From an uncultured bacterium (GTDB lineage Bacteria > Hinthialibacterota > Hinthialibacteria > Hinthialibacterales > Hinthialibacteraceae): 64,000 bases of DNA. The notes below the pieces were generated by a model. The model saw only the letters and a list, made by a program, of their open reading frames with translations, searched no databases and was not told the origin of the DNA. This document shows, in pieces, positions 2,002 through 54,900 of this stretch. The DNA lies in assembly GCA_964556895.1 (NCBI GenBank), contig CAZKYC010000001.1, forward strand, positions 29,371-93,370, written 5' to 3'. Positions within the stretch are counted from its first letter, which is position 1; each line of letters opens with the position of its first letter. Both the position numbers and the translations under genes were made by a program.

Positions 2002-2260
2002 AGGCTCATCCGGGATTTGGATACGTTCTTTCAAATTGAAATATAAATTTCCAGACACGATCTCAAGGATGATTTTTTTATCGTTGTATTTGGCATGGGT
2101 ACAACTCTGCTCGCTTCAGTGCGGCTCCGCCTTTTTGCACAGGCGCTCCCAGAGTTGCACCCATGCCCGAGTTGGATTGTCTATTATTGATAGGACAAAT
2201 ATCGTTTTTTGACCAAATTCCAGGTTATTCAGCATGGGAAGTACTCAAATATCGGAAGAA
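2002..2260 (+). mobile_element. MITE-like repeat family 1, copy 1a. Full length, with a conserved 66-nt core hairpin at 2097-2162.
   Basis: Flanked by a perfect 9-bp direct repeat GTTCATTTT (1993-2001 and 2261-2269). Imperfect terminal inverted repeat tccgggatttggatac / gtactcaaatatcgga. The core is gggtacaactctg...cagagttgcaccc, a 13-bp stem. Near-identical copies lie at 23124-23381 (reverse complement), 43874-44041 and 54484-54900. Confidence 0.75.
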
Positions 2261-2409
2261 GTTCATTTTATTGTGGCTCACAAGACGCCCTCCCCATTAT
2301 TCAAGATCACTACATCATCCTGCATTAGGCAGGCTTCTCGCGATGACACAAACATAATTACGGGTGGCAAGGGCAAGACCGCGAAGCGGGCAGCCCTTGA
2401 ATCGACAAC

Positions 2410-4119
2410 ATGATGAGACGCCTCGGCGGTTGGTTTTATTCTTGGTTCCCCTTCTTTCGCGACAACCTGGTCCAAAACCCCATCCTGTCGCGCGAGATGA
2501 TACGCTATCTGCGCCAGACGCGCTCGTTTGTTTTGCTGGGGTGTATCTTACTCGGCGGCATGGCCCTGCTCACCTGGATGTGGTCGACGCCCTCTGACAA
2601 CCTATCGCCGGTTGGCCGGCGGCTGTTTTACGCCACCCTGGGCGGCGAGATCGCCGTATTATTACTGCTGCTGCCTGGCTACGCCGCCCAGTCATTCATC
2701 ACCGAACGCGAACGCAACACCCTGGCCCTCTTACTCACCAGCCCGCTCGGCGAAGAACGCATCGCCGCAGGCAAACTCGCATCGGTCATCGGCGTGATGG
2801 CGCTGATCTTATTCGCCACCTATCCGCTCATCGCTGTTTGTCTGGCGCGCGGCGGCGTCGCGCCGTGGGAGATACTCGCGGCGGGCGTGGGCATGTTAAT
2901 CGCCACATTTATCATTTCATCATTCGCGCTGTATTTTTCTCTGATCGCTAAAACGCTGTTTCGCGCCGTGATCATGACCCAGATGAGTATGTTCACCATC
3001 TATATCGGCGGTATGTTCGCCATGTTTATGTTGACCAGCGCTGCCATCCTGATCGTTTCGCTGGCGTCCATAGCCGCGCCGGGGATGCAACCCACTTTCG
3101 CAATCATTGTCGCCGTTGCCGTGGTCTGTATGGCGATTCCGCTCGCGTTGCTGGTTCCATTGGGCATGTTCAAACTTACCGCGATCAAACTTCGGACAAT
3201 TGGTTCTGAGTTGGTCAGCGCGCGGGGCTATGACCAGGAGGTCGCCTTTCAGTTTGGCCAGGAAACCGTCACTGAACCCATCAACCAACCGCGTTCCAAA
3301 TGGAACGTACCCGAACGCGGCAACGCCTTCTTTTGGCGCGAGAAACTAAGCAACGCGGTCGCATCGCCGTTCCTGGCGATGCCGTCATGGTATGTCGTCG
3401 CCATTCTGGTCTATCACTTGTGTCTAGTGACGCCGCTGCAAAATGGCAGATGGCTGGTAGTCGCTACGTTGTGCTTATTATCTCAAATGGGCGGGGCCTA
3501 TGCGGCGCGGGCGTTCGCAGGCGAGAGAGAAAATCAAACCTGGGACCTCTTGATCACCACCACCTGCCGCAACAACGACCTCTTACTGGGCAAACTCTAC
3601 GGCGCGCTTCACCCTTGCCTGGTTCGCGGCGCCGCAATGTTTTTCATCCCGGCGGGACTGTTCATGGTGATTGATTCTTGCATTTCTCTTTTCAACTACA
3701 GCTCGCCCGCCGGCATCGGCGTGCCCATGGTCCACCAACTGGTTTACGCGACTGTGATTGTGGTAAATGTATTTCTGGTATGCGCGCTGGGGTTGTATTA
3801 TTCGTCCATTAAAAAAAGCGTCAACCAAGCCTTGATGTGGACCTATGGGACCGTTGCGCTTCTTTACCTTGGGCCGATGGCTCTTTCAGCCGTTCGCGGC
3901 GGCTTAGAACATCTCTACATCTTCAGCCCATTGTCGACCTGTCTCATGATCGGATCCTCCAAGGCAACATCGTTAGAAGAAGCCTACACGCTGCCGACGA
4001 CTATTTTGTATGAGCCGATTCCAAACTACCCGATGGCGGTGATTCACGTTATGGTTGTGAGTTTGATGATCGCCATCTTGCTTTGGCTGACTCAGAAACA
4101 ATTACACCAAGCCCGATGA
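2410..4119 (+). CDS. Polytopic integral membrane protein, possibly an ABC-2-type permease-like protein. Function unknown.
   Basis: 569 aa. More than 10 hydrophobic segments. No soluble catalytic motifs recognised. Confidence 0.5.
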   Translation: MMRRLGGWFYSWFPFFRDNLVQNPILSREMIRYLRQTRSFVLLGCILLGGMALLTWMWSTPSDNLSPVGRRLFYATLGGEIAVLLLLLPGYAAQSFITERERNTLALLLTSPLGEERIAAGKLASVIGVMALILFATYPLIAVCLARGGVAPWEILAAGVGMLIATFIISSFALYFSLIAKTLFRAVIMTQMSMFTIYIGGMFAMFMLTSAAILIVSLASIAAPGMQPTFAIIVAVAVVCMAIPLALLVPLGMFKLTAIKLRTIGSELVSARGYDQEVAFQFGQETVTEPINQPRSKWNVPERGNAFFWREKLSNAVASPFLAMPSWYVVAILVYHLCLVTPLQNGRWLVVATLCLLSQMGGAYAARAFAGERENQTWDLLITTTCRNNDLLLGKLYGALHPCLVRGAAMFFIPAGLFMVIDSCISLFNYSSPAGIGVPMVHQLVYATVIVVNVFLVCALGLYYSSIKKSVNQALMWTYGTVALLYLGPMALSAVRGGLEHLYIFSPLSTCLMIGSSKATSLEEAYTLPTTILYEPIPNYPMAVIHVMVVSLMIAILLWLTQKQLHQAR

Positions 4120-4233
4120 ACGACCCCGCTTCAATATCTGAAATATCTATTCGTTTCATTTGAATCGATCTCAACACCATTTCGCTTGACAGAAATAACG
4201 ACCTGTCAAAAAAAGACCGGCCTAATTAGGCAT

Positions 4234-4302
4234 GGGTGTATCTCTGAGAGCGCCTGTGCTTTAAAGCCGCTGAAAATTACACTCACAAATCCAGATACAC
4301 CC
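4234..4302. repeat. Solo copy of the family-1 core hairpin, diverged. It overlaps the last codons of the gene at 4283-5356.
   Basis: ggcatgggtgtatctctgagagcgcctgtgc...cagatacaccc shares the 5' stem and the gagcgcctgtgc loop block with family 1. The 3' stem arm encodes the C-terminal residues VGVYLDL* of the minus-strand gene. Confidence 0.55.
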
Positions 4303-5356
4303 CGACGCCAACGTAGTCGCCGTCTTGGCTAAACGCAGGAAAATTCAATGGCCGCCCGTTGTAATACTCTAACAACAAGCGCAGCGCCTTGCTTCGAAAC
4401 GGCCAGTCTTTAAACTCGACGCCCGCCGTGTAGCGCTGGTTAAGTTCCCAGTCGTCTTCTTCCCAGGTGGTGAAGTGCACGCCAAACACGGGGTGAATCG
4501 ACAAATGAGACCAGGGACGGTACTCGCCGCCAAACACCATCTCAAGCGGGTCGATGTCGCCCACGTCATCAAAGATATACACCGGCCCGCCATACACCCG
4601 CCAATCGGGTTGGCTGTAAGCCAGCGTCAAGTCGACCAGGTTACGGTCAAGTTGGCGGCCCAGAATATCAAGAAACGGCGGCAGCTCGCGCACGATATGG
4701 TCGTCGCCCAAATGGCCGCTGCGGTGCATGTATCTCACCCGCGCAGTGAAGTCGTCATAGTGAAAGATGAATGGAAACCCGACCTGAAAGTCAGTGTTTT
4801 CGAGATCGCCGCCGTTTTCCATATTGAAGTGGCCAAACACGCCGCCTTCAATGTTCATCTGGACGGTCAACCCTGGCGTGAACACATTCGTCCAACGATA
4901 GAGCGGCAACACTTCGCCAAAGCCAACCACGCCCGAGTTGTCCATATCATCGCTCGCGCGGTAACTTAAAAAGAACCGCGATTCCCATGGGTCGGCGACC
5001 AGCGGCTCAAACAAATCGCCCTTGGGGAACAACCCTTCGGTCGATTCGTTGATTTCGCTCGCCCAGTCAGTTTCATTCACTTCTTCACCTTGTTGTTCAA
5101 AGCGAACAGAACGAACGCCCGGCGCGCTTTGTAATGCGTCTTGAATCTCATTGCGAATAGCCTGATCTTGTGGAGCGTTGAGAATGATAATCGCGCCGGC
5201 TTTGACGATCACGTCCGCTTTAATTTGGTGAGTGGTTTGCAGAATCGCCGTCGCGTATCCACGTAAAAACTCATCGCTGGATGACTGCTGTGAAACCGAA
5301 GAAGAACAAACCACGCCTATGGCTAGTATCATCACGACCAAATGTTTAACCATCAT
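4283..5356 (-). CDS. Secreted, likely outer-membrane-associated protein with an N-terminal BON-like domain and a beta-rich C-terminal domain.
   Basis: 357 aa. Signal peptide MMVKHLVVMILAIGVVCSS. BON-like segment IKADVIVKAGAIIILNAPQDQAIRNEIQDALQSAPGVRSV. The C-terminus is rich in aromatics and Gly. Function not assignable. Confidence 0.5.
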   Translation of the reverse strand: MMVKHLVVMILAIGVVCSSSVSQQSSSDEFLRGYATAILQTTHQIKADVIVKAGAIIILNAPQDQAIRNEIQDALQSAPGVRSVRFEQQGEEVNETDWASEINESTEGLFPKGDLFEPLVADPWESRFFLSYRASDDMDNSGVVGFGEVLPLYRWTNVFTPGLTVQMNIEGGVFGHFNMENGGDLENTDFQVGFPFIFHYDDFTARVRYMHRSGHLGDDHIVRELPPFLDILGRQLDRNLVDLTLAYSQPDWRVYGGPVYIFDDVGDIDPLEMVFGGEYRPWSHLSIHPVFGVHFTTWEEDDWELNQRYTAGVEFKDWPFRSKALRLLLEYYNGRPLNFPAFSQDGDYVGVGVYLDL

Positions 5357-5445
5357 GGTTCTCCTTGTTTAGCAGGCAAAAGCCATTTCAAACCAATCAA
5401 ATCAATAACATTTTTCAACTTTTCGAATAACGACTTGGTAAGTCT

Positions 5446-5521
5446 GGCCGGGGTGTGTCTCAGTGAGCGCCTGCGCCAAAAAGCGGAGCGGCGCCGAAGC
5501 GAACAGAGATGCACCCCGGCC
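5446..5521. repeat. Solo copy of the family-1 core hairpin. It lies just downstream of the 3' end of the M14 gene.
   Basis: Outer stem ggccggggtg / caccccggcc, 10 bp and perfect. The loop gtgagcgcctgcgccaaaaagcggagcggcgccgaagcgaacagag is nearly identical to the loop of copy 1b at 23222-23287. Confidence 0.65.
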
Positions 5522-5555
5522 TAGCATTAGGTGCATCAGAGACGGCTTCAATCCA

Positions 5556-7289
5556 TTACGGCAATTCAATCACCCTCTCGATGCGCCCGCCTTTGAGCGA
5601 GTCAACAACCAGGTTGGCCTTGCCGCGGCCTGACACGATAAACTGGACGCGCACCGCGCCCATGCCCGGCACGCGGTTGACCGCCAACCGCTCTGGCCGC
5701 GCCTTGACCGCGCTGACTTTCCCAAAAAAACGGTCGGTCACATGCCCGCCGCTGATCACTTCGATATCGGCGCCCGACAACATCACTAAGTCGGCGCGAT
5801 TAATGTTGTTCTTACTATCCTGCTGAAGCCGGGTCGGGATCATGCCCTGATTGCGAATCTCAACCCACACTTTAGACAAACCGTCGCGCAACCGCTCGAC
5901 CTCGATCTCGCCAAATTCGAGCAGCGGGGTTTGTGACGCATGATAGAGCGTAAACGCCATGTTGCGGTGGCATTCTTCTTCTAATAAAAACGACGGCGGC
6001 ACGCGGCCAAACTCTTTCTTGACGCCGCCGATCTCTATGGCGCCATATTGGGGGTGGTCGTATGGCCGCCACTCGACCACGCCGTCATTTAATAATAGAT
6101 ACCGCAAAAAATCGCCGCGCGCGACCGCGCCGGTGTCGTTACTGCGAAACATGTTTTTCGGCGTCCACAATTCGTTGGTGAAGGCCGAGATGCCCCGGCC
6201 AGCGTAAAACCAGTCGAACTGTCCGCCCCAGACTGGATACAGGTGTTCCCATGAGATGACGTTAACATATTGCGGCAGCATGCGCTCCCCGCGCTTGGCG
6301 ATATCAATCATCAGGCGCTCGTCTTCTGGCTCAAGCGGCCCGCCGTCGCGATTTGGCCCGCGCAAGATCATGCCGCCGTAATTATGAAACGAAACCATCC
6401 CGCCAATGTTCGGGCGCGACAACACAAACTCGCCCACCGCGCGAACCGCCGGGAACGAGAAGGGAAAATCTTTCGCCCAATATTGAACATAATGAGGCTG
6501 CCAGTCGAACGCCCAGTTTCGGTTGGGGTCATAGCCGCCGGGGTTGTCTTCGTTGACGCGGCCGTCGCCGTCGTTGTCGACGCCTTCATAGCCCAACATA
6601 CTATACTCGCCGCGCTCGTCAGGCTCCGCGGGGACCATCTGAAACTCCGGATAATCAGGATGAGGCAGATACCGCCCGTTGGGGTCGCGCTTGCGCATCA
6701 TGGTGATCGAGCCGTCGCCGTTTAAATCGTCGAACGGGTCTTCATCCATGCGCCCGTCTTTGTCTTCATCGGTGGGGATCTGGCCGGTGCGCGACGAATG
6801 TTGGGTATTGGCGTTGTGAAACCAATAGTCGCGTCCGTCTGGGTTCACACTTGGCAACAAATAAATCACCCGCGAATCAACCAGGTCTGTGACCAGTTCG
6901 TTCTTGCCGTAATTCTCACACAGATACCACGCGGTGTAAGCCACCACTTCGCCGGCTTGCACCTCGTTGCCGTGTATGTTGCCGTCGATATACATGCCCG
7001 GCTTTCGGTCAGGGTCGCCCATGTCGCGATTGGTGACTTCTAACACCCACACCGGGCGCCCCTGATATGACTCGCCAATGGAATACAACTTGGTAATTTT
7101 TGGATACGCCTGATGAAGTTGTTGTAAGATCGACGCCAGCCCGTCTACGTCGTAGAAGCGGTTCCACGACACATCGACGTTTCGCTGGGCCGGCGCGCCC
7201 AATGCCTTGAATGCGTTTTCATCAAGCGCAAACGACGTGACAGAAAATACGGCGACTAAGAATCCAGTCAGGAAGGTTCGCTGCGTCAT
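5556..7289 (-). CDS. Secreted M14-family zinc carboxypeptidase.
   Basis: The HxxE zinc motif is present (GNIHGNEVQAGE), as is NPDG. N-terminal signal peptide MTQRTFLTGFLVAVFSVTSFA. RBS GGAAGGAG lies 7 nt before the ATG at 7289; the track's earlier M overlaps this RBS. Contains a DEDPFDDLNGDG calcium-loop-like insert. Confidence 0.85.
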   Translation of the reverse strand: MTQRTFLTGFLVAVFSVTSFALDENAFKALGAPAQRNVDVSWNRFYDVDGLASILQQLHQAYPKITKLYSIGESYQGRPVWVLEVTNRDMGDPDRKPGMYIDGNIHGNEVQAGEVVAYTAWYLCENYGKNELVTDLVDSRVIYLLPSVNPDGRDYWFHNANTQHSSRTGQIPTDEDKDGRMDEDPFDDLNGDGSITMMRKRDPNGRYLPHPDYPEFQMVPAEPDERGEYSMLGYEGVDNDGDGRVNEDNPGGYDPNRNWAFDWQPHYVQYWAKDFPFSFPAVRAVGEFVLSRPNIGGMVSFHNYGGMILRGPNRDGGPLEPEDERLMIDIAKRGERMLPQYVNVISWEHLYPVWGGQFDWFYAGRGISAFTNELWTPKNMFRSNDTGAVARGDFLRYLLLNDGVVEWRPYDHPQYGAIEIGGVKKEFGRVPPSFLLEEECHRNMAFTLYHASQTPLLEFGEIEVERLRDGLSKVWVEIRNQGMIPTRLQQDSKNNINRADLVMLSGADIEVISGGHVTDRFFGKVSAVKARPERLAVNRVPGMGAVRVQFIVSGRGKANLVVDSLKGGRIERVIELP

Positions 7290-7291
7290 GA

Positions 7292-8992
7292 TTATTCTCC
7301 TTCCCAAGTGATTGTTTGAGTTACGCTTCCGCCAACGGCAGAGATCAATAAAAAGGCCGTCTTGCTGCCTGGCGCGGCCTGTACCACAACCCTGGCTTCA
7401 CCCACCTCGCCTTTGGCGAGGCGCCCGAATGTGGTTCGCGGTTCGCCTGCGAGAAAGGCGTCATCCGGCAAATCAATTTCCAACCGGGTCGGGACAATCT
7501 CCGTCGTGCGTACGCCGTGTTGTAACGCTGTAGGAAGATAACCGGTGTTGGTCACGCGCGCGGTGACTTCATACACGCCGCGCCGTAATGATTTGACCTC
7601 AATCCCTTCAATCTCAACCCGCGGCAGCGACTCGCCTAGCGAGAGCAGAAACTCAACATGGGATCGCTTCCAGTCGTCGAACACATCCATTGGCGGAGTG
7701 GTCAACGCATACGGCGCCCAACCACCAATCTCTACGGTCTGGCCTGGATAATCGGGATGGTCAAACCCGCGCCATGGAATGAAATAATCGCCAGCCCGGT
7801 CACCCAGCCAATTCAGGTATTCAACCTGGTCTTTCTCGCGTTCTTCTTGAGATGGCTCATCGTCGGTTTCTTCGCCTTCATCGTCTTTTGTCTCATCCTG
7901 CTTCATTGCCAATGCAACCGCTGGGCTCCAGCCTGAGGCGACCAATCCCATTCGCCCGCGATGAAAATACACCCAATCGGTCAACGCACCGCGCACGCTT
8001 TCAGTTTCATCAACCTCGTCAAGGCCAACTAGGTCGCGATAGGTTTCGCCGACGTGGGTGTAATACTCAGCGTCATCGTCTGTGATTTTGGTTTGGGGAG
8101 TCCTGCCTGAAGTTTGCTTTTCCGTAGCGGGCGCTTTCGCGAGGTTGTCGTTTGACGCGAAGGCAAACACCACCCCAATGTTTGGATGGTCAATAATAAA
8201 GCGCCCCAGCGCATTGGTGATGTCTTCTCGTAATGGATACGCTCCGGCCTGGGCGTCAAACCACGGGTAGTCAAACGTGAATTGCTTGTTGAAATTGACG
8301 CCGCCCACTCCATCTTCGTTGAGCATGGCGTCGGCGTCATTGTCTTTGCCCTCGCGCAAGTACACCCACTGGCCGTCTTCGCCTTTGACTGGGTCAGCTT
8401 CGATCAAGATGCGTTCATCATCTGGATGAGCGATGTAGGCGCCGTCGGCGTCTTTCACTCGCATCCAGGTGACAAGCCCGTCGCCGTTGAGGTCTTCGGG
8501 CGGGTCTTCATCAACAAACCCATCGCGGTCGTCATCGTATGGGGTGAGATTTGAATCGCGGTGAAATCGGGGCGAGCGAAAAAAACGCTCTGAGGCGTCT
8601 GGGTTCAATCGTGGAACCACATAGACGGTGATGTCATTCAGCCGCGCCTTGTTGTCAGCGCTGAGCAACGATTCAACGAACGCCAACGCCGCTTCGCTTC
8701 CCGCCGGGCGGTCGCCTTCGATGTCGCCGATCACCAACAATGCCGGACGGACGAGCCGCAGTTCAGCGCCGCCGGCGCCAAGTTCGATGAGCCATACATC
8801 GCGGCCTTCGTTTGATTTCGCTAGCGACGAGTGATGGGCGAGTTTAGAACTGCGGCTTAGCGTTTTCACCTGCTCAGTGAGTTGACGATGAGTCGAGAAC
8901 GGCGGCGCCGACTCGTTTGCAAAGCACATCCGTTGCAAAGGCAGTAGAGAGGCGGCGAACATACCAATGTACAACCAAGGGGAGCGTATCAC
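7292..8992 (-). CDS. M14-like paralog with degenerate zinc ligands, probably a pseudo-peptidase. Secreted.
   Basis: Homologous to the downstream M14 enzyme along its whole length, including the DEDPPEDLNGDG insert. At the position of the NIHGNE zinc motif it reads DIEGDR, so His becomes Glu and Glu becomes Arg. NPDG becomes NPDA. Hydrophobic N-terminus. Its stop is 3 nt from the next gene's start. Confidence 0.7.
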   Translation of the reverse strand: MIRSPWLYIGMFAASLLPLQRMCFANESAPPFSTHRQLTEQVKTLSRSSKLAHHSSLAKSNEGRDVWLIELGAGGAELRLVRPALLVIGDIEGDRPAGSEAALAFVESLLSADNKARLNDITVYVVPRLNPDASERFFRSPRFHRDSNLTPYDDDRDGFVDEDPPEDLNGDGLVTWMRVKDADGAYIAHPDDERILIEADPVKGEDGQWVYLREGKDNDADAMLNEDGVGGVNFNKQFTFDYPWFDAQAGAYPLREDITNALGRFIIDHPNIGVVFAFASNDNLAKAPATEKQTSGRTPQTKITDDDAEYYTHVGETYRDLVGLDEVDETESVRGALTDWVYFHRGRMGLVASGWSPAVALAMKQDETKDDEGEETDDEPSQEEREKDQVEYLNWLGDRAGDYFIPWRGFDHPDYPGQTVEIGGWAPYALTTPPMDVFDDWKRSHVEFLLSLGESLPRVEIEGIEVKSLRRGVYEVTARVTNTGYLPTALQHGVRTTEIVPTRLEIDLPDDAFLAGEPRTTFGRLAKGEVGEARVVVQAAPGSKTAFLLISAVGGSVTQTITWEGE

Positions 8993-22550: not shown

Positions 22551-23069
22551 ATGAGAAAGAGAAGCCAAGCGTTCACACTGATTGAACTGTTAATCGTCGT
22601 CGCCATTATTGGCATCCTGGCGGCGATTGCCGTCCCCAACTTTTTACAGGCCCAAGTCCGCGCCAAGGTGGCCCAGATGCAGGGAACATTTAAAACCATG
22701 GTGACCGCGCTTGAGACCTATCGCATTGACAATGGCGCGCCGCCCGTCCATTACAATGACCCCAAACAAAACGCTTGGATGACAACCCCCATCGCGTATG
22801 CGTCGACCCGGCCCTATGACATTTTTCAAGACTTTAACACTGGCGTTTCGAGATTAGGCTGGCATGACTATGGCCGTAAAGAACGCTATGGCTGCCCCCA
22901 CTATGAGACCGGCAGGCAAAACACCGAGTATTGGATCGTCGGCATCGGCCCCGACCAGATTTGGCAGACCTTCAGTACTGACGCCAAGACCTACGACATT
23001 ACAAATGGAGTGATGAGCCAGGGCGACATGTATGTTGTCGAATCGTCGCTGACCTACATTTTTCACTAA
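22551..23069 (+). CDS. Prepilin-type (type II secretion GspG-like) pseudopilin paralog.
   Basis: Prepilin leader and cleavage/methylation motif MRKRSQA|FTLIELLIVVAIIGILAAIAVPNF. The C-terminal part carries a GIGPDQ motif resembling the GspG S.GPDG signature. Confidence 0.8.
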   Translation: MRKRSQAFTLIELLIVVAIIGILAAIAVPNFLQAQVRAKVAQMQGTFKTMVTALETYRIDNGAPPVHYNDPKQNAWMTTPIAYASTRPYDIFQDFNTGVSRLGWHDYGRKERYGCPHYETGRQNTEYWIVGIGPDQIWQTFSTDAKTYDITNGVMSQGDMYVVESSLTYIFH

Positions 23070-23123
23070 TCTCAGAAACTTGGCGAGCTCGCGAAGCCGC
23101 CCACCAAGCCTGTTCAAATAAGG

Positions 23124-23381
23124 TTCTTCCGATATTTGAGTACTTCCCTTGCTGGATGACCTGGAATTTGGTCAAAAAACGATATTCATCCTATCAATAC
23201 TAGACAATCCTCCTCAGGCAAGGGTGCAACTCTGTGAGCGCCTGTGCAACAAAGCGGAGCGGCGCCGAAGCGAGTAGAGTTGTACCCATGCCAAATACAG
23301 CGATAAAAAAATCATCCTTGAAATGGTGTCTAAAAAAATTAATTCAATTTAAGAGAACGTATCCAAATCCCTGATGAGCCT
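23124..23381 (-). mobile_element. MITE-like repeat family 1, copy 1b. Full length, reverse orientation, core hairpin at 23222-23287.
   Basis: About 90% identical to copy 1a along all 258 bp. Flanked by similar 9-mers CAAATAAGG (23115-23123) and CAAATAACC (23382-23390), which I read as a roughly 7-bp target-site duplication CAAATAA. Confidence 0.75.
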
Positions 23382-23543
23382 CAAATAACCTTCAGCGGTG
23401 GGCGAACCCATCCTGCGGTGTTCCCCAGATAAATTTTCCCCGCACTCGTCGTTTTTCTGATCTCATACTATTCTACTACTGAACGAAAACATACCGCCTA
23501 ATGGCGCCAATCTTGTTACTGCTTACTGTAAATTCATAGGCTG

Positions 23544-24173
23544 ATGAAAGATCAACAAATGACAAAAATGAAATCAGGTTTTACCTTAATTGAATTGTTA
23601 ATTGTCGTCGCCATTATTGGCGTCCTCGCGGCCATCGCCGTGCCCAACTTTCTGAATGCGCAGATTCGCGCCAAGGTGGCGGCGGCCCAAAGCGACATGC
23701 GCGCGCTCGGAACCGCGCTCGAAATGTATTCACTCGACAACAACGCCTACCCGCCCTTTCGCCATGACATCAACGGCGAGTGGCGCTATAAGGGCGCGCT
23801 GGCGCGGCTGACCTCGCCAGTGTCATACATGAACACCATCCCCAACAGCGACCCATTTAATTCAGAGGCGCCATCGGCGTATGGCGGCGCAACCGACGAC
23901 GCCAATTATGGGTATACCTATGTCGATTACAAATCATTTTCGCCCAATAACTATTGGCCGTTGTGGGCCAAGCCGCTCAACATTCTGTGGGTGCTCTATA
24001 GTTTTGGCCCTGACCGCAACGATGACGTGGGCGTGGTGGCGATTGGTAAAGTGATCGGCCCGAATTTTGACATTCCCACATGGAACCCAAACCGGGTTCC
24101 CTATTCGTCATCAAATGGAATCATCTCCAACGGCGACCTCATGCGCTCCAACCACGGCGATCACAGTAAGTAG
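23544..24173 (+). CDS. Prepilin-type (GspG-like) pseudopilin paralog.
   Basis: MKSG|FTLIELLIVVAIIGVLAAIAVPNF prepilin motif. C-terminal SFGPDRNDD motif. 209 aa. Confidence 0.8.
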   Translation: MKDQQMTKMKSGFTLIELLIVVAIIGVLAAIAVPNFLNAQIRAKVAAAQSDMRALGTALEMYSLDNNAYPPFRHDINGEWRYKGALARLTSPVSYMNTIPNSDPFNSEAPSAYGGATDDANYGYTYVDYKSFSPNNYWPLWAKPLNILWVLYSFGPDRNDDVGVVAIGKVIGPNFDIPTWNPNRVPYSSSNGIISNGDLMRSNHGDHSK

Positions 24174-43767: not shown

Positions 43768-43873
43768 TTTCGTGGAGTTGACCATAGTGGTTTTTATCTT
43801 AAATAGACTGTATGTGGTGATGGGGTGAGAACCCACCCTTCATTTGCTCTCTTCTTGATTTACACCCAGTGTG

Positions 43874-44041
43874 GCATGGGTACAACTCTACTCGCTTCAG
43901 TGCGGCTCCGCCTTTTTGCACAGGCGCTCACAGAGTTGCACCCATGCCTGAGTTGGATTGTCTATTATTGAAAGGACGAATATCGTTTTTTGACCCAATT
44001 CCAGGTCATCCATCAAGGGAAATACTCAAATTTCGGATGAA
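43874..44041 (+). mobile_element. MITE-like repeat family 1, copy 1c. It is 5'-truncated: it has the core hairpin at 43878-43943 and the right arm but no left arm.
   Basis: It aligns with copy 1a from ggcatggg through aatttcggatgaa. Confidence 0.7.
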
Positions 44042-44062
44042 CCTGTATTTTGATATTTCTCC

Positions 44063-48754: not shown

Positions 48755-48836
48755 GCGCGCCCGTATCCGCCGCGGCGGACAGCGATAGATACAGTTACGT
48801 AAACTCAATCCGCACATAATTCTGGCAACCACTATA
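48755..48836 (+). repeat. Intergenic repeat family 2, copy c.
   Basis: gcgcgcccgtatccgccgcggcggacagcgatagatacag...caatccgcacataattctggcaaccac aligns with 1245-1321. Confidence 0.7.
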
Positions 48837-48986
48837 AAACTGAAAAAATGAATTGGTCAGCCTAACGAGACGTTTTGTCCAATCGTTATTTATAGATTGA
48901 AGGCGCATACCCTGCGATAAATCAGGGATTTCGCGATACAATAGTCAGCAACACCGGCTTTGAAAGCCTACCCAAGGAGATTTTGA

Positions 48987-54483: not shown

Positions 54484-54900
54484 AATCCAGAAACCATGTC
54501 AAAACACAGCAACCTAATATCGGCTTGGGTGCAACTCTGGAAGCGCCTGTGCAAAAGGGCCTGAAAGCCCGCACTGAAGCGAGCAGAGATGTACCCAAGC
54601 CAGACACAGCAAAATCTCAATTCAATATACGGAAAAAACCTAAAATGAATGACCCCGCCCCAAAGGGCGAGGAATTAAACCCGAATTAGATAAAATCCAG
54701 AAACCATGTCAAAAACACAGCAACCTAATATCGGCTTGGGTGCAACTCTGTGAGCGCCTGTGCAAAAGGGCCTGAAAGCCCGCACTGAAGCGAGCAGAGT
54801 TGTACCCAAGCCAAATACAACGATAAAAAAATCATCCTTGAGATCGTGTCTGGAAATTTTAATTCAATTTGAGAGAACGTATCCAAATCCCGGATGAGCC
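54484..54900 (-). mobile_element. MITE-like repeat family 1, tandem pair. D1 is a partial copy with its core at 54527-54596. D2 has its core at 54738-54807 plus the full left arm. Both are in reverse orientation.
   Basis: The block aaaatccagaaaccatgtcaaaa(a)cacagcaacctaatatcggcttgggtgcaactctg occurs twice, 208 bp apart. The left arm at 54808-54900 matches the left arm of copy 1a at about 90%. The right arm belongs to a different subtype (aagccgatattaggttgctgtgtttttgacatgg...). Confidence 0.7.

Follow-up and report, generated by a model that had tools for sequence, protein, structure and literature searches.

In a 64,000-nt stretch of DNA (contig CAZKYC010000001.1, positions 29,371 to 93,370; hereafter the window) from an uncultured Hinthialibacter-like bacterium, two hairpins flank a gene of the DUF1207 family. 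The first, S1, lies where this gene meets a convergent ABC-2 permease gene, whose product is 73% identical to a protein of Candidatus Hinthialibacter antarcticus. The second, S2, lies between the DUF1207 gene and a gene for an M14 carboxypeptidase. Our analysis indicates that S1 and S2 are probably decayed internal fragments of a miniature inverted-repeat transposable element (MITE) of about 259 bp, and that the end of the DUF1207 protein was not rebuilt by a hairpin. A preliminary description of the same DNA had located hairpins at 4234-4302 and 5446-5521, and computation of their stems and folds confirmed that both are present.

A motif built from the S1 and S2 hairpins was searched over the window and over shuffled versions of it, with seven matches in the former and none in the latter. 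Other copies of the family were found in a related genome, L031 (two copies), and in JGI metagenome contigs (at least 15). Alignment of the seven window copies, 15 metagenome copies and two L031 copies together with their flanks defined a full unit of 259 nt. Its ends are terminal inverted repeats of about 22 bp, in which GGTTCATCCGGTAAGTGAGTAC and the reverse complement of the right end, GGTTCTTCCGGTATTTGGATAC, match at 18 of 22 positions and follow the pattern GGTTC(A/T)TCCGGTA..GAGTAC with its inverted copy. AT-rich direct repeats of 8 bp, the target-site duplications, surround four of the six full copies (TCAAATAA, TAAAATGA, ATTTTTTT and AGAATTAA), and the duplication at copy A is 9 bp long. 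Copy A (2003-2261, minus strand, 259 nt) is bounded by the direct repeat TTCATTTTA at 1994-2002 and 2262-2270, and copy B (23122-23380, plus strand, 259 nt) by TCAAATAA at 23114-23121 and 23381-23388. The nhmmer profile made from the six full copies has a length of 262 and also located the partial copies. Copy C (43868-44043, minus strand) is truncated and keeps the left arm and the core without the right arm. Copies D and E (54495-54900, plus strand) are a tandem 211-nt duplication of partial MITEs, D consisting of the inner-left arm and the core and E of the inner-left arm, the core and the right arm. On the reverse strand, too, the whole element matched the profile built from it (E = 1e-9), which shows that it is a long imperfect palindrome.

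No transposase was seen among the 24 large open reading frames (ORFs) of the window that were scanned. The element is built like a MITE: it is short, has no transposase gene, carries terminal inverted repeats, is bounded by target-site duplications and occurs in dispersed copies. It inserts into AT-rich intergenic DNA with a target duplication of 8-9 bp. L031, L035 (Candidatus H. antarcticus) and another relative, L001, have an empty site where the window has S1; at the site of copy A, the intergenic DNA has diverged between the genomes compared. Searches of viral contig and plasmid collections gave no family matches, and a scan of a genome-contig collection returned 11 scattered single matches in unrelated taxa, consistent with chance. 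The family has not been described before, the kind of element being already known. The start of the repeat, GG(C/T)TC.TC, and the 8-bp duplication are reminiscent of the ISL3 family.

S1 and S2 both aligned to the MITE profile, and the proposal of the preliminary description that the hairpins derive from a mobile element was thus borne out. S2 (5402-5523, plus strand), delimited by nhmmer, a covariance model and its ortholog in L031, covers profile positions 52-176 (E = 2.6e-14) and consists of the inner-left arm followed by a complete core hairpin at 5446-5521. The hairpin has a 16-bp stem formed by GGCCGGGGTGTGTCTC and GAGATGCACCCCGGCC, including two G.U pairs, and folds at -50.7 kcal/mol on the plus strand (z = -6.2 against shuffles) and at -45.2 on the minus strand (z = -4.4). 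It lies 34 nt past the M14 stop codon (5556-5558), not directly after it as had been stated, and 89 nt ahead of the DUF1207 start. S1 (4199-4283, plus strand) is less complete. It covers profile positions 66-134 of 262, corresponding to window 4199-4268 (E = 1.6e-11), and in the alignments its homology can be followed by eye from 4268 to about 4283. S1 is therefore made up of the inner-left arm and the 5' half of the core, and it ends in ACACT where the family has GCACT. The covariance model scores were 72.5 bits for S2 and 24.4 bits for S1, and 75-109 bits for full copies. Each of the two retains about 30-45 nt of the inner-left arm of the element, and so neither is the solo core that it had been called. 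S1 is 70-76% identical to most MITE copies, 65-67% identical to D and E, and 63-68% identical to the S2 copies. The idea that S1 is a local duplicate of S2 was rejected, since S1 is closer to most of the other MITE copies than to those of S2.

The stem of S1 is formed in an unusual manner. Its 5' arm, GGGTGTATCT (4234-4243, plus strand), was recognized in the sequence, by the motif search and in the fold, and is derived from the repeat. Its 3' arm, AGATACACCC (4293-4302, plus strand), is the reverse complement of the DUF1207 codons for G-V-Y-L; it is ancestral coding DNA and not repeat-derived. The two arms make a perfect 10-bp stem with additional outer pairs between GGC (4229-4231) and GCC (4307-4309). 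The fold has -24.1 kcal/mol on the plus strand and -31.6 on the minus strand, with modest z scores (-2.7 and -3.0). The hairpin at 4234-4302 had been taken for a diverged copy of the core. Its 10-bp stem does exist, but what is present is a half-hairpin in which only the DNA up to 4268, or about 4283 by eye, is homologous to the repeat.

The DUF1207 gene (4283-5356, minus strand) encodes a protein of 357 amino acids with a signal peptide and a conserved C-terminal GVGVYLDL. The preliminary description had correctly delimited this minus-strand ORF and named it a BON-domain gene. Pfam assigned the protein to DUF1207 (PF06727, E = 5e-46, profile positions 69-338 of 342), with a match that reaches residue 353 of 357, and no BON match was found in its N-terminus; one DUF1207 ortholog carries a precomputed BON match. 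The protein ends in VGVYLDL, the stop codon occupying 4283-4285 and the last seven codons 4286-4306. The 3' arm of S1 had been said to encode all of this ending. The arm does span the G-V-Y-L codons, but those for D-L and the stop codon are in the loop.

The preliminary description had suggested that a mobile hairpin inserted into the 3' end of this gene and that its 3' arm encodes a rebuilt C-terminus. Such an event would be an in-frame fusion like those of the Rickettsia palindromic elements (RPE) and the Coxiella QMITEs. The description had added that orthologs encoding the same residues without the repeat would speak against this idea. The location of the 3' arm within the last codons is as expected from such an event, translation of an S2-type 3' arm in this frame would yield G-V-H-L, which differs from G-V-Y-L by a single base, and C-termini supplied by MITEs are known in Coxiella and Rickettsia (PMC10969869, PMC5896051). 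When the orthologs were compared, however, all ten (32-85% identity) ended in G[VLFI][GS][VIL][YH][LMF][DEF][LFY], and these residues are covered by the Pfam DUF1207 profile. In four lineages without the hairpin, the same ending is written in near-identical codons: GGC GTG TAT TTA GAT TTA TAG in L002/L031, where the convergent ABC-2 stop is 3 nt away; GGC GTG TAT CTC GAT TTG TAA in L001; GGC CTC TAT CTC GAC CTG TGA in L003; and GGT GTG TAT TTG GAT TTG TAA in L035, where a remnant of DUF1207 lies 1 nt from the ABC-2 stop. The codons GAT TTG/TTA and the stop could not have come from a hairpin arm, and the nhmmer homology to the repeat ends at 4268. A covariance model search of L001, L003 and L035-L038 found no family copy. 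Since hairpin-free lineages encode the same ending with near-identical codons, the C-terminus is not derived from the hairpin. These comparisons of orthologous sequences show it to be ancestral, and insertion of a hairpin that rebuilt it is very improbable. In L035 (GCA_030765645.1), DUF1207 has been cut down to a remnant of about 97 nt (7720-7816) between the ABC-2 and M14 genes. The remnant ends in GTG GGT GTG TAT TTG GAT TTG TAA, so the last codons survive there as debris of the loss of the gene.

The occurrence of the same ending in hairpin-free relatives also indicates that a tight tail-to-tail junction between the two convergent genes is ancestral. The ABC-2 permease gene (2410-4119, plus strand) and the DUF1207 gene are separated in the window by a spacer of 163 nt (4120-4282) that contains S1, whereas L031 has only 3 nt and L035 only 1 nt at this place. 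With a tight ancestral junction, the 163-nt spacer with S1 would by parsimony represent an insertion specific to the lineage of the window. We propose that S1 entered the tight ABC-2/DUF1207 junction in this lineage and that a later deletion took the 3' half of its core and the right arm, up to the DUF1207 stop codon. A deletion between the hairpin 3' arm and the similar gene end acting as direct repeats was discarded because the stop and the D-L codons would be gone, yet they are intact and ancestral. An old insertion between M14 and DUF1207, S2 was in place before the split from the L031 lineage and no longer has its terminal repeats.

The question then arises of how a repeat arm came to be complementary to codons that were there before it. 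In the S1 stem, the surviving 5' arm of the repeat pairs with ancestral codons at the end of the gene itself. Complements of at least 10 nt to the S1 arm are present at only two non-MITE sites in 128 kb. A match within 80 nt and in the arm spacing of the family (49 nt, compared with 46-50) is expected by chance with a probability of about 1e-3. The consensus arm, GGGTGCAACT, would mismatch the end of DUF1207 at two positions, at both of which S1 has T. These T bases, at arm positions 6 and 8 (variant GTGTRTC), occur only in S1, S2 and the L031 ortholog of S2, all of which flank DUF1207. They may have been inherited from an older subfamily and not be compensatory, given that S2 and its L031 ortholog share them. 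On the side of the gene, Gly is encoded within the stem by GGG, a minor codon (17% usage), whereas orthologs have GGC. The neighboring Leu codon, CTG, costs the S1 stem a pair that CTC, as in L001, would give. The ancestral gene end pairs with the modern family arm, GGGTGCAACTC, at eight of 11 positions, and with an S2-type arm at nine Watson-Crick positions and one G.T.

In our reading, a fortuitous partial match would later have been perfected to 10 bp by a few point changes. The changes would comprise the two arm positions, if the arm was once of the consensus type, and the replacement of GGC by GGG in the Gly codon. They could have arisen through quasipalindrome correction by template switching, weak selection or luck. 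Quasipalindrome template-switch mutation is an established mechanism (PMC7202029). It offers a selection-free path from an imperfect to a perfect pair of arms and would fit the S1 changes, which leave the protein unchanged. Gene conversion from an ancestral S1 into S2 was also considered. It would explain the shared arm variant and a loop sequence, TTACAAATCC, but is disfavored because the 1-3-nt junction in L031 and L035 implies that S1 is lineage-specific. The 10-mer match behind this idea is within a background of about 1% per comparison. The loop sequence in question is found in the apical loop of the S2 ortholog in L031 (9865-9874); it is identical to the reverse complement of the L035 DUF1207 stop and last codons and matches those of L001 and the window at nine of 10 positions. 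This may be chance, as matches of at least 9 nt are found in about 1% of background comparisons.

S2 was compared with its ortholog in L031 (9826-9907), which occupies the same place between M14 and DUF1207; L001 and L003 do not have S2. In the stem and internal loops, 44 of 55 positions (80%) are identical, compared with 43-61% for the intergenic flanks and the hairpin apex and 54-61% for four-fold degenerate sites in the two flanking genes. For this single genome pair, the excess has binomial p values of 5e-5 to 2e-3. The outer stem contains a compensatory difference, CCGG in one genome and CATG in the other. This conservation is the best hint of constraint that we found and comes from one genome pair. 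A separate observation concerns the end of the M14 gene. The alignment of the L031 ortholog to the MITE profile runs, with low posterior, into the last four M14 codons (CAATTCAA, profile positions 222-229; L031 9771-9784 and window 5559-5570). The similarity of the M14 end to the profile is probably coincidental because the octamer is also present in M14 orthologs without a MITE.

These results bear on whether stem-loops born from the MITE were co-opted as RNA structures under selection. In such a scenario, S2 would be an intercistronic stabilizer or processing site in an M14-M14-DUF1207 transcript, and S1 a protective 3'-end stem re-completed with the last codons of the gene. The conservation of S2, its compensatory difference, the low chance probability of the S1 stem and the unusual Gly codon are all in its favor. 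Three other solo cores without terminal repeats are located 38-44 nt from ORF stops in metagenome contigs (L020 1707-1786, L023 996-1075 and L029 1084-1163), and that of L023 lies between two convergent ORFs, much like S1. Such positions are compatible with co-option or with deletions that trimmed non-functional DNA to gene boundaries. Precedents exist in the ERIC and Correia elements, and co-transcribed MITE hairpins can alter mRNA stability (PMC2229807). Other features argue against co-option. The orientation of the copies is mixed: S1, S2, D and E run antisense to the genes that precede them, whereas B and C are sense to their flanking genes. In the mRNA sense, both G.U pairs of S2 become C.A and A.C mismatches. 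S1 is missing from L031, L035, L001 and L003, and S2 is present in neither L001 nor L003. The CTG codon drops a pair that was available, the conservation test was made on a single genome pair, and a translating ribosome would melt the S1 stem in every round. Taking both sides together, we regard co-option as possible and rather doubtful.

The preliminary description had also considered that the hairpins act at transcript ends, as an RNA stabilizer or a Rho-dependent pause, and had remarked that they have no U-tract. This remark was correct. A terminator scan predicted nothing at either hairpin, and no U-tract directly follows either stem; the nearest U7 in the DUF1207 mRNA sense is 14 nt beyond the S1 stem base (4206-4212). 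A canonical U-tract terminator is found at 1803-1830, after a thioredoxin gene, with GGCCGCC-AGTC-AGGCGGCC followed by TTTTTT, and it is conserved in L031. Its presence indicates that the organism uses ordinary U-tract terminators. This, the mixed orientation of the copies and the lack of S1 in relatives speak against a role of S1 or S2 as Rho pause or stabilizer, and the conservation of S2 speaks for it; such a role is possible. S1 and S2 are not intrinsic terminators, and no sigma-70-like promoter was found near them. A translating ribosome must melt the S1 stem to reach the stop codon, which makes a stalling role unlikely. In transcripts, the stem-loops would act at most as generic barriers to 3' exonucleases, processing sites or RNase III substrates, by analogy with ERIC, Correia, QMITE and REP sequences.

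The core of the MITE was also examined as a possible functional unit. It is a stem-loop of 76-82 nt at the center of the element and its best conserved part. Over 21 distinct copies, 92.8% of the structure is paired, with changes on both sides at four pairs. The core could be a functional nucleic-acid module spread by the MITE, either a structured small RNA or a DNA or RNA motif to which a protein binds, and the solos would be domesticated copies of it. By eye, cores in the alignment are about 90% identical between window and metagenome copies, and the arms differ far more. The unpaired internal-loop motifs CTCTG-N-GAGCGCCTG and GAAGCGAGCAGAG are invariant in 22 copies despite a variable apex. 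A wobble pair, G10.U71, which can form on one strand only, is retained in 16 of 21 copies, and the 5' motif of S1 is intact although its flank has diverged. Against these points, Rfam 15 gave no match over the whole window at the gathering threshold, and one full copy searched at an E-value threshold gave only chance miRNA matches (E = 6-9). Around the core, neither a promoter nor a terminator is conserved, the orientation of copies relative to genes is mixed, and viral contigs and plasmids had no matches. The similarity of the copies may reflect recent amplification from one master copy, and an ascertainment bias exists in that decayed copies are detectable only when the core survives. On balance, a module of this kind appears unlikely.

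Several known structures were compared with the core. Reading the internal loops as a hammerhead-like CUGANGA/GAAA motif failed a check by eye because A6 is missing, and a K-turn was rejected in the same way for want of a 3-nt bulge. There are no tRNA or tmRNA genes in the window. An integron attC site was rejected: its core sites (RYYYAAC ... GTTRRRY) belong at the stem ends, whereas GCAAC/GTTGT stands in the middle of the stem of modern copies, and S1 and S2 do not have it. The flanking genes form a conserved syntenic cluster and are not cassettes. A stronger form of the module idea would have the host domesticate the core around DUF1207. S2 would then be a selectively maintained intercistronic element, and S1 a half-module re-completed by complementarity to the last four codons of the gene. 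Conserved coding DNA would at the same time serve as the 3' arm of a stem with a regulatory or protective role, and the arm variant GTGTRTC would be a gene-specific adaptation. To this proposal, too, we assign little probability.

We thus favor the reading of S1 and S2 as decayed MITE fragments beside an ancestral gene end. A number of observations nevertheless weigh against it. A perfect 10-bp complement in the register of the family is unlikely to have arisen by chance, and the arm variant is confined to copies that flank DUF1207, so that a plain account of neutral relics leaves both the variant and the complementarity unexplained. The higher conservation of S2 suggests that it is not entirely functionless. 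Terminal repeats and target duplications were not detected at S1 or S2; a search for decayed terminal repeats gave results no better than shuffles in the region left of S1 and marginal against shuffles in the region right of S2. The origin of the two as complete MITE insertions is therefore something that we infer rather than see. Finally, no autonomous parent insertion sequence (IS) was found, the transposase scan having covered the 24 large ORFs.

The family shares features with other small mobile repeats of bacteria. Like Coxiella QMITE1 and QMITE2, Neisseria Correia/NEMIS and enterobacterial ERIC, it is a small non-coding repeat that is present in multiple copies and carries terminal inverted repeats and target-site duplications. 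It also shares with them a long hairpin made by the whole element, a mostly intergenic location and common truncated copies. MITE copies that adjoin or overlap the last bases of genes have been documented (PMC5896051), and roles of ERIC, Correia and QMITE as 3'-exonuclease barriers or RNase III substrates have been described (PMC2229807, PMC5896051, PMC10969869). The family of the window differs in having no sequence relation to described families, with no match in Rfam, plasmids or viral contigs, and in its uncultured Hinthialibacter-like host. It also differs in that at S1 the DNA of the gene itself pairs with a half-element, and no DNA of the element lies within the gene. The RPE, like other MITEs fused in frame, are also palindromic mobile repeats physically tied to coding sequence. 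However, RPE insertions add residues that are missing from orthologs, whereas the residues at the DUF1207 end are ancestral and are also encoded by orthologs without a hairpin. Proteobacterial REP/BIME sequences are also intergenic or intercistronic stem-loops without U-tracts, and REP elements can protect upstream mRNA from 3' exonucleases. REP units are 20-40 nt long, are linked to RAYT (Y1) transposases and have no terminal inverted repeats or target-site duplications, whereas here a 76-82-nt core is part of an element bounded by both. No RAYT was seen among the window ORFs scanned.

Some further features of the region were recorded. The M14 carboxypeptidase gene next to S2 (5556-7307, minus strand) is the upstream gene of a conserved M14-M14-DUF1207 cluster, with synteny in L001, L003 and L031. 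As called, the two M14 ORFs share 16 nt, the upstream one having its stop at 7292 and the downstream one a TTG start at 7307. Because 0-5 nt separate the two genes in relatives, the downstream M14 gene probably starts further in. Copy B is inserted between paralogous prepilin-type (N_methyl) genes at 22551-23069 and 23544-24173, the 5' ends of which are 76% identical, and the D/E tandem pair is located between the start of a Band-7 gene and the stop of a cobalamin adenosyltransferase gene. A second repeat family of 83 nt is present at 1246-1328 and 48757-48839, with 78% identity within the window. It also occurs at about 1010-1095 of the metagenome contig L021 and in L024, to the right of its hairpin. 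In two metagenome loci, the hairpin MITE has the reverse complement of this repeat, GTRGTTGCCAAAATACTGTGCRGATTRAG...GTATCTATCGCTG, inserted in or beside it. Folding of the repeat revealed no notable structure, and the repeat may represent one end of a different mobile element that uses the MITE as its target.

The outcome is of value mainly for annotation: it delimits a MITE family, so far undescribed, in an uncultured, phylum-level, Hinthialibacter-like lineage. The apparent gene-end hairpins S1 and S2 are probably transposon debris, and they are neither terminators nor rebuilt protein termini. If the constraint on S2 and the pairing at S1 were confirmed, the DUF1207 locus would offer a small and clean example of the exaptation of MITE fragments, one in which non-coding DNA adapted until it could again form a stem with a coding partner that stayed fixed.

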